Assembly (NCBI GenBank): GCA_934098505.1
Contig: CAKOOR010000001.1
Coordinates: 259,027 to 323,026 of the forward strand
DNA length: 64,000 bases
Direction of reading: 5' to 3'
Origin: an uncultured Bacilli bacterium
Lineage (GTDB): Bacteria > Bacillota_I > Bacilli_A > RF39 > UBA660
Shown: positions 15,161-19,219 of the stretch, in pieces
Numbering within the stretch: position 1 is the first letter of the stretch
How the letters are laid out: every line of letters begins with the position of its first letter
Program-made: the position numbers and the translations under genes
The notes under the pieces: generated by a model
The model's input: only the letters and a program-made list of their open reading frames with translations
What the model was told of the DNA's origin: nothing
Databases searched by the model: none

Positions 15161-15207
15161 AAACCCAGAAAATAACTTCTGGAGCCGAATATGATACAAT
15201 CTAATTG
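15161..15207. repeat. Left copy of a 48-bp inverted repeat (IR-L) bounding a ~4-kb cassette
   Basis: aaacccagaaaataacttctggagccgaatatgatacaatctaattg, where cccagaaaataacttctggagcc matches the reverse complement of 19168..19219 exactly over this 23-bp core. It contains the palindrome CCAGAA-n6-TTCTGG. Together with the preceding A-run this reads as a terminator on the minus strand. Confidence 0.8.
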
Positions 15208-15415
15208 ACGAAAGAAGATATATCACATGGATTATTTTAATATAAAAAGGTCTATTTTCATAATTTTCTCAAACAAGTGCATTGAGAAAAAGAAAAAAAT
15301 AGATAAATTTATTGAAATTTTAAATAAAATTGAATTCCTATGTTAATTAAGATTTATTATTTAAATTGTACGTATAATACAGTTAAACTTGATAATAATA
15401 TATTAAAAGTAAAAT

Positions 15416-15446
15416 TTTCATAGAGTATATAACTCTATGAAAGCTA
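15416..15446. repeat. Nested inverted-repeat copy a (a 30-bp sequence that is itself a hairpin)
   Basis: tttcatagagtatataactctatgaaagcta. Its reverse complement at 15665..15696 is identical except for A-run length. Confidence 0.8.
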
Positions 15447-15664
15447 AATATCGATATCTATTTTTAATTTATAGTATAAATATACCATATATTTTAGAGA
15501 TTTTAAAGAGTTTTTAATAACCTATTGTAGTCAAAATTGTAGTCAATTAAATTGCTTGTTTCTTTAGATATTAAAAGGGTTTTCAAAGCTTTTAATAGTC
15601 AAATAATCAATAATTTTTGTGGTCAAATTTTCTGGTCAAATACACATTTAATCCAGTAATTACT

Positions 15665-15696
15665 TAGCTTTTTCATAGAGTTATATACTCTATGAA
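15665..15696. repeat. Nested inverted-repeat copy b
   Basis: tagctttttcatagagttatatactctatgaa. The loop (TATAT versus ATATA) and the flanking TAGC/GCTA confirm inverted orientation relative to copy a. Confidence 0.8.
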
Positions 15697-15777
15697 TCCA
15701 TATTTACGCATTTTGATATCTATTACTCATTAATTGTTTAAAAATGGGAATAATAATTGTAGTAAGGAAGATTTATT

Positions 15778-17796
15778 ATGCAAAAGAAAAAGGTAAATAT
15801 GATAGTATTGGTTGTGTCTGTAATATTGACACTAATTGGACTGAGTTATGGTTATTTTTTTATAAAAAAAAATCAGGAAAATAATAATGTAGCTGGTAGT
15901 AAGTGTTTTAAATTAGAATTTTCTAATGAAAGTTCTGCTATTAATTTAACTAACATGTATCCAATTAGTGATGAAGAAGGCAAAAAGCAAGTACCATATT
16001 CATTTACAATAACTAACACTTGTGATATGTTAGCGGGCTATACGGTTAATATGGAAATGTTAGAAGGTACAACGTTAAATAGTAAGTATTTGGATGTTTT
16101 AGTAAATAATGAAGAGATTAAATTACTTTCTACTTATGAGGCAACGGATACAGTAATAGCAAATAGTACGGAGTCAAGAATTTTAACGAAAGGTACTTTA
16201 GCTTATAATGATTCTGTGGATTATACAGTTAGATTTTGGATGGATAAGGATGTTGAGGATATCGAATCAATGAATAAGTATTTTGCGTCTAAAATAGTAG
16301 TAGTGGCAACTCCCTCTAGTTGGAATTCGAAAGATGCGGGCTACGATACTTTACACGATGCAATATTAGCTAATGAATATCAAACAACACCTGACATTGC
16401 TAAAACTAAGATTGCATCCAAACAAGCTATTGATGTAACTAATACTGCGCCAGTTATTAATTGGATTGAAAAAACAGGTGGTGCAACAACAGTAACTGCT
16501 GTTAAACCAGCCCAAAGTGTTATTGAAACCTATAATAAAGATACTGGTACTGGTGATAAAACAACTCAAGCTAGTGATTTAACTTTAAATGATACAAAAT
16601 TACGTTTATTTAAAACGAAAACATTTAATAGCGATACTGCTAGATATTATTTAAGCAATCCAGTCTATGTTGATCCAACTGCCTTAGATTATTCTGGTGA
16701 TACTAAATATTATTTCCAATCAGAAATTATTTATTATAATCAAACTAGTCAAAAGTTAGTAACATCTTCTTTTGGTGATGGTGTAACTATATACCAAGTA
16801 ACAGGTGCTACAAAGACTACTGGGACAACAGAATGGAATGGAGTTTCCTATGATAGTATTACTTATAATTTAAGTGCTACTACTTTAACTGAAACAGAAT
16901 TAGAAACTGATAAATCTGATAAAGGTTTATATCAGGGAACCGATGATTATGGTACAACCTACTATTATCGTGGTAATGTTAAAAATAATATAGTTTATTT
17001 TGCTGGATATTATTGGCAAATAATAAGAATCAATGGTGATGGTTCCATAAGACTCATTTATGATGGAACCGAAAAGAATGCATCTGGTGTAAAACAATCA
17101 ATAAATAATGAAACTTATCAATTTAATAGTTTATATAATGATCCAACTTATGTCGGATATATGTATGGTAATCCTGATGGTACAACATTTGATGGAGTAC
17201 ATAATAATACCAATAATTCAGCAATAAAGACAGCAGTTGATAATTGGTATAAAACCAATATAGCGGATAAAGGATATAGTAGTTATATATCTAATGCCGT
17301 TGGTTTCTGTGGCGATAGAAGTCTTCCTGCAGGTGTTTGGGGTACAAATGATAATGGCGATGGAGTAAATAATACTCCGCAAACATCAATTTTTGGTGCA
17401 TACGCAAGGCATGTAAAGAATGTTGCTCAATTTACATGCTCAGAACCATCTAGAGATTTATATACAACTACAGATTCTAGTATAGGAAATAAGGCTTTAA
17501 CTTATCCAGTAGGGTTAATTACCTACGATGAATTAGTATTTGCTGGTATGGATAACCTACATATAAATAAATTATCATGGGCTTATTCAACTCAACATTA
17601 CTGGACAATGTCCCCTTCGGTCTTTGATGTGTCGAACGGTGCAGCTGATGCGTGGTCTTTGCATAGCACTGGCTTTCTTGATCCCTGGCCTTGGGTTGCC
17701 AACCGGTATGGTGCCCGCCCAGTTATTAATCTGAAAGCTGATGTAAGAATATCTGGGGGAACAGGAACAGCAAATGAACCGTATGTAATTGACTGA
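15778..17796 (+). CDS. Large secreted or membrane-anchored surface protein (N-terminal TM/signal anchor; Thr/Gly/Tyr/Asn-rich; C-terminal conserved module)
   Basis: The RBS taaggaag lies 7 nt before the ATG. The N-terminus MQKKKVNMIVLVVSVILTLIGLSYGYFFI is hydrophobic. The last ~70 codons (17600-17796) are about 50% GC against a ~27% background. The C-terminal motif YWTMSPS...PVINLKADVRISGGTGTANEPY is shared with the 18617..18979 fragment. Confidence 0.7.
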   Translation: MQKKKVNMIVLVVSVILTLIGLSYGYFFIKKNQENNNVAGSKCFKLEFSNESSAINLTNMYPISDEEGKKQVPYSFTITNTCDMLAGYTVNMEMLEGTTLNSKYLDVLVNNEEIKLLSTYEATDTVIANSTESRILTKGTLAYNDSVDYTVRFWMDKDVEDIESMNKYFASKIVVVATPSSWNSKDAGYDTLHDAILANEYQTTPDIAKTKIASKQAIDVTNTAPVINWIEKTGGATTVTAVKPAQSVIETYNKDTGTGDKTTQASDLTLNDTKLRLFKTKTFNSDTARYYLSNPVYVDPTALDYSGDTKYYFQSEIIYYNQTSQKLVTSSFGDGVTIYQVTGATKTTGTTEWNGVSYDSITYNLSATTLTETELETDKSDKGLYQGTDDYGTTYYYRGNVKNNIVYFAGYYWQIIRINGDGSIRLIYDGTEKNASGVKQSINNETYQFNSLYNDPTYVGYMYGNPDGTTFDGVHNNTNNSAIKTAVDNWYKTNIADKGYSSYISNAVGFCGDRSLPAGVWGTNDNGDGVNNTPQTSIFGAYARHVKNVAQFTCSEPSRDLYTTTDSSIGNKALTYPVGLITYDELVFAGMDNLHINKLSWAYSTQHYWTMSPSVFDVSNGAADAWSLHSTGFLDPWPWVANRYGARPVINLKADVRISGGTGTANEPYVID

Positions 17797-17939
17797 GTAG
17801 CTGACAGTTTTTTTCAAAGCCTTATAAGTATTAGGCTGAAGGTTGCCAAAAGTTCGCCCAACTGCCTAGTATTTTGTCAAAAGCATACAATGTCTAAGAA
17901 AATATCTAAAAAAGCTGTGTTTTTGACACATCAACACTC

Positions 17940-17978
17940 CCCACTAGATGGTGGAGTTTTTTTCTTGTACCGATTCAA
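17940..17978 (+). terminator. Possible terminator downstream of the surface protein gene
   Basis: ctccccactagatggtggag is an imperfect hairpin followed by TTTTTTTC. It lies within the GC-elevated patch. Confidence 0.35.
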
Positions 17979-18167
17979 AAAAAATCTAAGCATCATAAAG
18001 GATAAATCGAAAGCTTAAACGAACATATTTTAATGACTCAAAGGCTCAATGAAATAAGGTTAAGCCAGTATTGAATAGCGATAAAGTCCTGGTTTTAATT
18101 CGACGTACAGTGATGTGGGTTTTAATCTTAGTATGCTTATAACATCTTGTGTTTTAGAATAATTAGA

Positions 18168-18572
18168 TCATAGAATAGTTAAATATAGAACACCAATGCA
18201 AGCAAAACAACACACTGATTTGAAGTAATCTAACGAACAATTAACTGTATTTTCAAGATAAAAGCCATTAGATTTCTGATTTTTAAATACTGATTCTATA
18301 CCGCCAAAGTGATAACTGTAATCTTTAATGGCACGTTTAGAATTTTCATTTGTGACAAGAATCCAAGGATCATCGGTATCAATGGAATAACTTATGACAA
18401 TGTTGGTAATATACTTATCTTCTGCAAATTCAATTTCGTTGTAAGATTTGGCATGATATTTGTATTTTGAAAATTCATTTAGCCATTTCCAAATTTTATG
18501 ACCTTCTTTTTTGTCGAAGTGCAGTGCTTTGATGTTTTTCTTTAGGTGACGTTTTTTCGACAAATGCGACAA
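18168..18572 (-). pseudogene. IS4-family (DDE) transposase C-terminal remnant
   Basis: The translation contains YSYHFGGIESVFKNQK, matching the IS4 C-terminal signature Y-x2-(R/H)-(W/F)-x-IE-x2-FK-x2-K, in a 134-aa ORF. No N-terminal DDE region is present, so it is truncated. Confidence 0.45.
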
Positions 18573-18616
18573 CTAGTTATATAGGTTACTCAAGAGCACT
18601 TAACTAACAAGCTAGT

Positions 18617-18979
18617 TTGCTTTGCAACAATAAAGATGATTTTTTCACTGTTGAGAACAATGCTGGCAATAAAGCATTAACCTATCTGATTGGATTAATA
18701 GCTTATGATGAATTAATGTACGCTGGAATAAACTATCGAAAAGCAAATAAATATTCTTATGTTTCATCTAATATTTTATACTGGACTATGAGTCCTTCAC
18801 AATTTTATAAAGATAATGGTTTAGAAATTGGTACTCTTAATTATGGAGAAAGAATAATGTTTAATAGTGTCGATTATGGAAAATATGTAAAACCTGTCAT
18901 AAATTTAAAGTCTGATGTTAAAATATCTGGTGGTATTGGAACAGTAAATAATCCATACATGGTAGATACTAATAATTAA
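18617..18979 (+). pseudogene. Truncated paralogue of the 3' module of the surface protein gene (silent cassette or remnant)
   Basis: Its 120-aa translation (…NKALTYLIGLIAYDELMYAG…YWTMSPS…KPVINLKSDVKISGGIGTVNNPYMVD) aligns at about 50% identity with the last ~110 aa of 15778..17796. It has native AT-rich composition. There is no convincing RBS and it lacks the N-terminal 550 aa. Confidence 0.5.
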
Positions 18980-19167
18980 TAAATGGGGTCAAACAAAAAA
19001 ACACAACTTTAGATATGTTAGTTTATAAAATTCTCTTATCAAAAGGCTCCAGCATTTTATAAGTAAATTCAAATTTGGGACTACTTCCTCGCTTCCATTA
19101 TGTGAGAATAATATTAAGAGGGTGGTTTTTATCCTAAATTTATTTGTGAGATATATCTTGATTTTAT

Positions 19168-19219
19168 CAATTAGATTGTATCACATATGACTGGCTCCAG
19201 AAGTTATTTTCTGGGGCTT
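19168..19219. repeat. Right copy of the 48-bp inverted repeat (IR-R); also reads as a plus-strand terminator
   Basis: caattagattgtatcacatatgactggctccagaagttattttctggggc. The hairpin CCAGAAGTTATTTTCTGG is followed by GGCTTTTTTG. Confidence 0.8.

Follow-up and report, generated by a model that had tools for sequence, protein, structure and literature searches.

Two kinds of described system, insertion sequences (IS) that target terminator hairpins and surface-protein genes that are switched by DNA inversion, resemble a 4.2-kb insert in the genome of an uncultured Bacilli bacterium from the human gut (low GC, ~27%, with sporulation genes present). The insert lies between a gene for a 242-amino-acid (aa) protein and gatD within a stretch of 64,000 nucleotides (nt) of contig CAKOOR010000001.1, to which we refer as a whole as the window. 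It is bounded by a long inverted repeat and carries a gene for a 672-aa protein, in front of which lies a nested pair of 26-nt inverted repeats. We consider it highly probable that the outer repeat is the scar of an IS and that the nested repeats form the invertible-promoter switch of a phase-variable gene family.

In composite transposons of the Tn5/Tn10 type, two inverted copies of one IS bracket a cargo, with the same type of end outermost. The cargo in the window is bracketed in the same way, but the locus keeps only 160-240 bp of each IS, has neither a transposase nor a target duplication, and is found at a single site. IS1272 inserts into terminator hairpins, part of which it deletes; it makes no duplication of the target and is also able to mobilise an adjacent gene (PMC4923244). 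As in IS1272 and TnSha1 (IS1182 family, staphylococci), the element concerned here has a DDE transposase, and the native terminator stem-loop in the window has been replaced with no flanking direct repeat. Unlike in those elements, the transposase is only ~32% identical to annotated family members and scores below the curated cut-off, the ~43-nt terminal repeats themselves form terminator hairpins, and the cargo lies between two IS ends from which both transposase genes have gone, rather than beside one IS plus a surrogate repeat.

Among inversion systems, the mpl (P35) genes of Mycoplasma penetrans are described, in the account of Horino 2003 given in PMC2268961, as a multigene lipoprotein family at several loci with an invertible promoter for each gene, in which tyrosine recombinases are implicated. 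The window family likewise has an adjacent invertible promoter for each gene and dispersed loci, but its proteins are unrelated and are not lipoproteins, its 26-nt sites have a 7-bp centre and enclose segments of 228-240 bp, its candidate recombinase resembles the integrases of conjugative transposons, and its host is a gut member of the Bacilli that carries spore genes. In Bacteroides, dispersed loci are switched ON and OFF by promoter inversion and one recombinase acts on several loci (PMC2268961); the titles of further papers indicate that invertible promoters are common among gut bacteria. The phylum, recombinase and site sequence differ in the present case, and copies of the switch also exchange their flanks. 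In the vsa, vsp and vpma systems of Mycoplasma, the gene for a tyrosine recombinase adjoins a set of arrayed paralogous genes for surface proteins, and site-specific inversions take place (PMC2268961). The home array of the window family has the same arrangement, but there is a promoter switch for each gene, unlike the single promoter or expression site that is moved among silent genes in vsa, vsp and vpma. The suggestion, made in a first reading of the window from its sequence only, that the system may be undescribed finds no support, as hairpin-targeting IS1182-family elements (PMC4923244) and multi-gene invertible promoters (PMC2268961) are both documented; what might have been a new recombination system in the outer repeat is explained by ordinary mobile-element decay.

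A nested promoter switch upstream of the 672-aa gene

The two nested sites, IR-L and IR-R (Table 1), are 26 nt each and 100% complementary, in agreement with the sequence-only reading, which had noticed a nested inverted-repeat pair, of 30 bp, within the segment. Inverted arms around an asymmetric centre of 6-8 bp constitute the core-site architecture of tyrosine recombinases. Loci of relatives (L027, L028, L030 and L031) contributed another 7 complete site pairs and, at the end of the L030 locus, a single site with no partner. The arms TTCATAGAG and CTCTATGAA are conserved across the switches, among which five different 7-bp centres occur (TATCTAA, TATTCAA, TATCCAA and CATAAAA in the relatives), and for 7 of the 8 distinct pairs, the window's included, one centre is the exact reverse complement of the other, the exception being unit 2 of L030. 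In the L030 pair at 8613-8903 the centres differ at one base (TATCCAA versus TATTCAA). Two L027 switches (8613-8903 and 12368-12658) are identical, including the 7-bp centre, and could therefore recombine together. No match to the 26-nt site was found in viral contigs.

The promoter predicted within the segment is conserved in 7 homologous switches (-35 TTtcAA, 17 nt, TG-extended -10; segments of 228-240 bp), and in the window, as in all seven of the switches aligned, it occupies the strand opposite the gene. Two assemblies show inversion of the 228-bp segment. At the window locus, the sequence of L004 leaves the 672-aa gene, crosses IR-R and continues with 29 nt of the flipped segment, matching an in-silico flipped model at 128 of 130 bases. 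The 132-kb contig L033 shows the entire segment flipped at a paralogous locus whose switch is the same, with the promoter facing the paralogous gene there. The proposal of a recombining surface-antigen locus in the sequence-only reading accordingly stands for the nested 26-nt repeats, between which the segment is flipped in L004 and L033, and finds no support for the outer repeat. From the direction of the promoter, the orientation in the window is probably OFF and the flipped orientation ON; a recombinase acting at the 26-nt core sites would turn the promoter into the 672-aa gene. Contig ends at 15646 and at 15786-15791 were discarded as signs of inversion, being explained by a 141-nt stretch identical between loci together with assembly at k=141.

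The segment also contains five GTCAA motifs. Two tandem pairs of these, with a spacing of 12-13 bp, do not vary among seven diverged switches. GTCAA reads TTGAC on the other strand, so that the motifs could represent either accessory sites of the recombinase or -35 boxes.

A candidate recombinase beside the home array

Loci L027, L028, L030 and L031, which we regard as home loci of the family, have the order RNase J, RmuC, a ~582-aa protein, a 355-aa tyrosine recombinase on the minus strand and 1-3 switch-plus-gene units, each paralogue owning a site pair beside the recombinase. The 355-aa protein has Phage_integrase (PF00589) and SAM_3 (PF14659) domains, and its gene, which lies outside the window, adjoins the first unit in these four loci and in L012. 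A look-up of the exact protein yielded no more than a cluster representative that is 90% identical, on a contig of 1.5 kb. Among solved structures the recombinase has its best relative in Tn1549 Int, and its N-terminus presumably resembles arm-binding domains, for which reason the GTCAA motifs may be accessory (arm-type) sites. We infer that this enzyme is the switch recombinase and that it acts in trans.

The first home-locus switch is positioned 160-250 bp from the start of the divergent recombinase gene (L027 3714-5313, L028 7402-9001, L030 3742-5341, L031 7402-9001), and its promoter, in the assembled 'OFF' orientation, points into that gene. This layout suggests that the orientation of the first switch could control expression of the recombinase.

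The outer inverted repeat consists of two IS ends

The core 23-mer of the outer repeat, CCCAGAAAATAACTTCTGGAGCC, is found exactly twice in the window, at 15164-15186 (+) and 19193-19215 (-), against a chance expectation of 0.00 matches. A second copy of the distal 18-mer has 1 mismatch, and a MAFFT alignment places a gap of 4 nt between core and distal part. The repeat is therefore present where the sequence-only reading had put it, with a 23/23 core in opposite strands; the distal 18 bases match but for the one mismatch, the 2-bp indel it gave is one of 4 nt, and its length of 48 bp falls far short of arms that measure ~150-190 nt (within 15094-15336 and 19126-19285). Similarity spans 15081, the stop codon of the 242-aa gene, to ~15227 and ~19147 to 19301, the stop codon of gatD. 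Ungapped arms (15080-15186 and 19193-19299, 107 nt) are 79% complementary, a gapped alignment from the two stop codons inward has 85% column identity, and BLAST gives 80-82% over 157-181 nt. There is no other long inverted repeat in the window.

Folding revealed two hairpins per arm, a strong outer one and a weaker inner one. The outer hairpins (-32.9 and -21.3 kcal/mol), which had previously been overlooked, read as terminators for the flanking genes, and the inner ones (-10.2 and -18.2 kcal/mol) as terminators of transcripts that exit the segment. The left inner hairpin was also called by a terminator scan, so the outward-facing terminators that had been described on both sides are borne out. 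Rfam models gave only sub-threshold matches on the right arm, to Hrs12 (28.7 bits, cut-off 70) and Spot_42 (24.3 bits, cut-off 80), both of which we dismissed as chance.

A scan of public metagenome contigs for CCCAGAAAATAACTTCTGGAGCC returned three further loci (L024, L025 and L026). In each of these the 23-mer sits within a stretch of 200-245 nt that is 92% identical to window positions 15094-15336, and the neighbouring genes are unlike those of the window. The stretch is followed in L024 and L025 by a 529-aa open reading frame (ORF) starting MNYFNIKRSIF, within which L026 ends, and the window from the ATG at 15227 reads MDYFNIKRSIF, like this N-terminus, before similarity stops at 15336. 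The L024 copy of the 529-aa protein matches Pfam DDE_Tnp_1_6 at 82 bits (cut-off 25) and NCBIfam transpos_IS1182 over positions 25-485 of 488 (E 2e-57), at 195 bits, below the curated cut-off of 270; its best annotated relatives are IS1182-family transposases such as that of ISClbu1 (~32% identity). The intact element in L024 is ~1.76 kb long and its ends are inverted repeats 96% identical over 53 nt, with terminal repeats of ~43 nt (GGGGCTGAGTGGAAAT...ATTTCTACTTAGCTTC plus a T-run) that form the outer hairpin. These ends match better inverted than direct, which argues that the hairpin is part of the IS and that there is no duplicated target.

The left arm aligns with the IS left ends of L024, L025 and L026 at 92.2% over 245 nt, and the right arm (19285 down to 19126) at 83.3% over 162 nt. 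Since homology covers the terminal repeat, the inner hairpin, the 5' untranslated region (UTR) and ~36 codons, the left arm is a truncated IS left end, and both arms are most likely truncated left ends of one IS1182-family element. The fallback offered in the sequence-only reading, the scar of a composite mobile element, was thus right for the outer repeat. No transposase ORF is left in the window, where IS homology ends at 15336 and 19126; no further IS-related sequence beyond the named copies was detected in the window or in ~0.55 Mb of partly redundant fetched loci, and no target-site duplication is present at any IS end examined. The IS termini are uncertain by a few bases because all ends adjoin A-rich sequence; the first base of the left copy (IS-L) is ambiguous within the A-run 15094-15098.

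In L024 the element has a PDZ-protein gene on one side and a DisA_N-like gene on the other; in L025 it follows rplS and adjoins a tRNA gene, and in L026 it follows tsf. The window is its fourth unrelated genomic context. The copies in L024 (342-2098) and L025 (798-2502) are complete or near-complete and that in L026 (831-1402) is partial; each lies a few bases past the stop codon of a gene. The stop codon of the transposase falls inside the right terminal repeat. The terminal hairpin contains G-T pairs and so forms well only in transcripts that enter the IS from outside. The L025 copy (regions 2438-2650 and 730-800) has no outer left hairpin and adjoins DNA of higher GC content with conjugative-element-like membrane proteins, and its right end adjoins an apparent tRNA gene.

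The sequence-only reading had named a generic REP-like terminator repeat (repetitive extragenic palindromic), scattered genome-wide and unrelated to this locus, as what would refute its proposal, and the 48-bp sequence does fold as an intrinsic terminator and has exact copies in other contigs. Such a repeat is, however, barely credible here, as the three other copies all occupy one position within the same IS, beside the transposase start, and neither the window nor the ~0.55 Mb of partly redundant fetched loci contains a solo copy.

The same reading had preferred an outer repeat that bounds an invertible 4-kb segment, in which the arms recombine and the whole cassette flips, varying expression of the surface protein. 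The arms are long inverted repeats that enclose the surface-protein gene, and DNA rearrangement does occur at the locus. We nevertheless regard such a flip as extremely improbable. Our orientation survey comprised about 60 assembled contigs, carrying the exact GatD (22), 242-aa (22) or 672-aa (17) protein, and in none of them was the 4-kb cassette inverted, a single orientation relative to gatD being found throughout. The arms are IS ends rather than recombinase sites; they are 80-85% identical with indels, and hence a poor substrate for homologous recombination; and inversion of the whole cassette would leave the promoter context of the 672-aa gene unchanged.

The insertion site

In the closest species found (L014), whose GatD is 96% identical and whose 242-aa protein is 82% identical to that of the window, the two genes lie directly opposite each other, separated by a 75-bp spacer with a single bidirectional terminator hairpin. 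By comparison, the window keeps the A-run and T-run flanks of this spacer and has the 4.2-kb insert in place of the native stem-loop, with no direct repeat flanking the insert. A comparison of orthologous loci, which had been put forward as a check, therefore gave a locus without the cassette and with a single hairpin instead. Loss of the hairpin without target duplication is a trait of IS1272, although the empty site that reveals it here belongs to a different species. Because the terminal repeats of the IS are terminators, the IS can replace a terminator that its insertion destroys.

The cassette is present in every contig read that has the exact GatD of the window species. Other relatives have, at the gatD spot, a LysM/GH25-like 619-aa protein or a 285-294-aa lipoprotein, and no 672-like gene was found there in those examined. 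The interval from gatD to a 105-aa gene is a variable spot, with cargo that differs by species. The 242-aa protein, which has no match in Pfam or NCBIfam, consists of an internal tandem duplication of a ~120-137-aa module, and in relatives this module is encoded by two separate adjacent genes (L016 13945-14762, L017 11870-12636 and L019 12766-13596).

Exchange between loci through the switch

A 666-aa paralogue, 73% identical to the 672-aa protein, is usually encoded 3' of a Tad-like pilus operon, in the order Tad operon, 90 bp, switch, 666-aa gene, Fic, Zip and ThyX (L032, L034, L035 and nine similar places). The Tad locus and the window have ~470 near-identical bp in common, which take in a 78-bp spacer, the two sites (alike in their centre), the segment, a leader of 81 nt and the first codons; in the Tad locus the 78-bp spacer falls between the terminator hairpin of the operon and the left switch site. 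The junction of L011, at first taken to coincide with the inner edge of IS-L, is better explained by this shared repeat together with assembly at k=141.

Two joins occur in sample ERZ27287295, one of which links the Tad operon, switch, 672-aa gene and gatD (L003/L011, 234-kb contig) and the other the 242-aa gene, IS-L, switch, 666-aa gene and Fic (L033, 132 kb). From these reciprocal joins it appears that the chromosome has undergone a large rearrangement through the switch region, for which strains are polymorphic. In a different sample, contig L029 ends within IR-L 3' of the Tad operon. In L012 (5392-5665), a contig recorded in two samples, the recombinase locus is joined to the window switch exactly at the left edge of IR-L: its left part carries RNase J, RmuC, a 603-aa protein and the recombinase, and its right part is identical to the window through gatD and murT. 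The L012 junction represents an analogous exchange with the home locus. Judged by single-nucleotide polymorphisms, the crossover may lie in IR-L, IR-R or the segment, and the exchanges may be site-specific or homologous.

The alternative left junctions (L011/L003, L012 and L033) might instead be chimeras of metagenome assembly through the repeated switch, which is a multi-copy repeat of ~370-470 bp in or near which several contigs break (L004, L007, L008, L013, L029 and L036). We think this quite unlikely. Both reciprocal junctions come from one sample and lie on contigs of 234 and 132 kb, and reciprocal products on such long contigs are hard to explain as artefacts; the L012 contig was recorded in two samples; and the repeat is longer than the final k-mer, so that the assembler would normally break rather than join.

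Origin of the cassette

The composite could have formed by insertion of one IS into the terminator hairpin of the Tad operon and of a second IS beyond the unit. The IS-bounded element would then have inserted into the terminator hairpin between the 242-aa gene and gatD, deleting it, after which both IS copies would have lost their transposase genes and everything beyond 160-240 bp. The outer IS hairpins would now terminate transcripts of the flanking genes and the inner hairpins would stop transcripts that exit the insert. No IS-cargo-IS arrangement was found at a second site, and in 17 of 17 contigs with the exact 672-aa protein gatD is on the right; the metagenome scan for the 23-mer gave bare IS copies only.

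Alternatively, two IS copies may have inserted independently and in opposite orientations into the same hairpin, the unit having arrived later by switch recombination. Repeated insertion of IS1182-family elements into one terminator in both orientations is documented (PMC4923244), switch-mediated exchange of flanks between loci is observed, and the 78 bp to the left of IR-L are common to the Tad locus. This route needs more steps, however, and switch exchange would account for the left junction while leaving unexplained the right one (19052-19125 and the right IS copy, IS-R), which is identical in all three arrangements. We regard independent insertion as possible though rather unlikely, and favour the composite element.

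The cargo unit and its protein family

The cargo is colinear with the tandem units of relatives and is 90-91% identical over 3.65 kb to L028 8614-12258 and L027 8611-12275. Each unit comprises a site pair, a gene of 650-680 aa, ~800 bp with a minus-strand ORF, and a 3' fragment of ~120 codons. The 672-aa ORF of the sequence-only reading was recovered, as was a GC-rich patch (GC 0.43-0.49 at 17500-17800, against ~27% for the genome), the GC-rich 3' end of the gene (~17500-17796) belonging to the conserved unit. The silent 3' paralogue fragment that it had described was found again, with ~43% aa identity to the C-terminus of the 672-aa protein. This fragment is conserved in units, forms a 120-aa ORF in L028 as well, and is no local silent cassette. 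Finally, its IS4 transposase remnant, at 18168-18572, is not confirmed. This 134-codon ORF has no NCBIfam match at E<=10 and only chance-level Pfam matches (SH3_9 and PLAC), it is not similar to the IS1182 transposase, and it recurs at the same position in L027 and L030.

The true 3' ends of the genes for 652/658-aa paralogues, which do not have the GC-rich end, match the 3' fragment at 81-83% nt identity, and the fragment is for this reason best interpreted as the gene's original 3' end, now displaced. Given that the unit is tandem and colinear in relatives, the GC-rich patch, the 134-codon ORF and the 3' fragment are old parts of the unit and not local scars. An AT-rich copy of the C-terminal domain thus lies 0.8 kb past the GC-rich end, and paralogues that have no GC-rich end finish AT-rich. 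This pattern suggests an old replacement of the 3' end, earlier than duplication of the unit.

The 672-aa protein belongs to a family of >3000 homologues, none of which has a Pfam domain or a name. It has itself no Pfam or NCBIfam match, and sequence and profile comparison with PDB gave no match, the best being PilE (E 0.08). An AlphaFold model from a 28-sequence alignment is of low confidence (mean predicted local distance difference test, pLDDT, 50.6) and has a predicted N-terminal helix (residues 2-36) and a beta-rich body. The product is probably a surface protein.

Table 1. Coordinates of the insert, its component features and the flanking genes in the window.
Feature	Position	Strand	Basis or remark
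242-aa gene, internally duplicated	14353..15081	+	ORF; left flank, convergent with gatD
IS-L, truncated left end, most likely IS1182 family	15094..15336	+	homology to L024-L026 plus hairpins
IS-L terminal-repeat hairpin	15099-15135		folding
IS-L second hairpin	15164-15183		outward, minus-strand terminator; terminator scan, folding
IS-L transposase ATG	15227		followed by ~36 codons; 5' UTR ahead of ATG
78-bp spacer shared with Tad locus	15337..15414	+	alignment with L011, L032, L033, L034, L035; also L029
Complete switch-plus-gene unit	15415..19051	+	colinear with tandem units in relatives
IR-L, left core site	15417..15442		TTCATAGAG-TATATAA-CTCTATGAA; 9-10-nt arms around asymmetric 7-bp centre
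Invertible segment, 228 bp	15443..15670		predicted promoter points away from gene in window
Predicted promoter in segment	15479..15507	-	promoter scan; -35 TTTAAA, 17-nt spacer, TG-extended -10 TATATT
Five GTCAA motifs	15530..15639	+	starts 15530, 15542, 15598, 15622, 15635; candidate accessory sites
IR-R, right core site	15671..15696		centre TTATATA, reverse complement of IR-L
672-aa gene, predicted N-terminally anchored, beta-rich	15778..17796	+	ORF; ATG 81 nt past IR-R
134-codon ORF conserved within units	18168..18572	-	same position in L027, L030
Displaced AT-rich 3' gene end, 120 codons	18617..18979	+	~43% aa identity to 672-aa C-terminus
74-bp spacer between unit and IS-R	19052..19125		outside both unit homology and IS homology
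IS-R, second, more decayed left end, inverted	19126..19285	-	alignment, folds
IS-R second hairpin	19193-19222		plus-strand terminator; folding
IS-R terminal hairpin	about 19246-19280		folding
gatD	19301..19981	-	Pfam GATase_3; right flank
murT	19974-21317		after gatD; Pfam MurT_C, Mur_ligase_M

Neighbouring genes

Pfam profile matches agree with the flanks named in the sequence-only reading, rpsT and SpoIIP on one side and gatD-murT on the other. Elsewhere in the window, a T-box leader (99 bits) at 4874-5060, ahead of an isoleucyl-tRNA synthetase-like gene, is the sole match above an Rfam gathering threshold. A tRNA-Ser (GCT) gene is located on the minus strand at 21794-21884, 3' of murT, where there is also a weak Rfam match to tmRNA.

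Discussion

Several observations weigh against the combination of an IS scar and a promoter switch that we propose. With regard to the IS, the transposase falls short of the curated IS1182 cut-off and is distant from annotated members, the copies in L024-L026 come from other gut bacteria and the sole shared flank is only 75% identical, and the inner parts of both copies in the window must have been lost independently. The empty site comes from a different species, and the hairpin of L014 may not be ancestral in the window species. The cassette occurs at no other location, so that transposition as a composite is inferred. With regard to the switch, the candidate recombinase lies outside the window and its activity on the 26-nt sites is putative, the ON/OFF call derives from a consensus promoter, and among the 14 switch instances observed, 12 have the 'OFF' orientation.

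A more far-reaching model is that one integrase-type tyrosine recombinase with an arm-binding domain controls identical invertible promoters at three or more dispersed loci, that large, reversible inversions of the chromosome are due to this enzyme acting between loci and not to homologous recombination, and that the home 'OFF' switch is coupled to the supply of recombinase. We consider this model speculative and put it forward as an unlikely but coherent possibility. If it were true, the inversions would move surface-protein genes among the contexts of the recombinase, the Tad-like pilus operon and gatD, and the promoter of the first 'OFF' switch, by feeding the recombinase gene, would couple the state of the switch to recombinase supply.

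When genomes are scanned, two decayed IS ends can present themselves as a long inverted repeat that bears terminators and encloses a surface-protein gene, and the real recombination sites can be far shorter repeats inside it. Current concepts are unchanged by this locus, from which a well-defined system is gained, with sites, a promoter and a candidate recombinase. It documents a large unannotated family of phase-variable surface proteins in uncultured, Mollicutes-related gut Bacilli, and rearrangement of the chromosome among strains through the exchange of switch copies.

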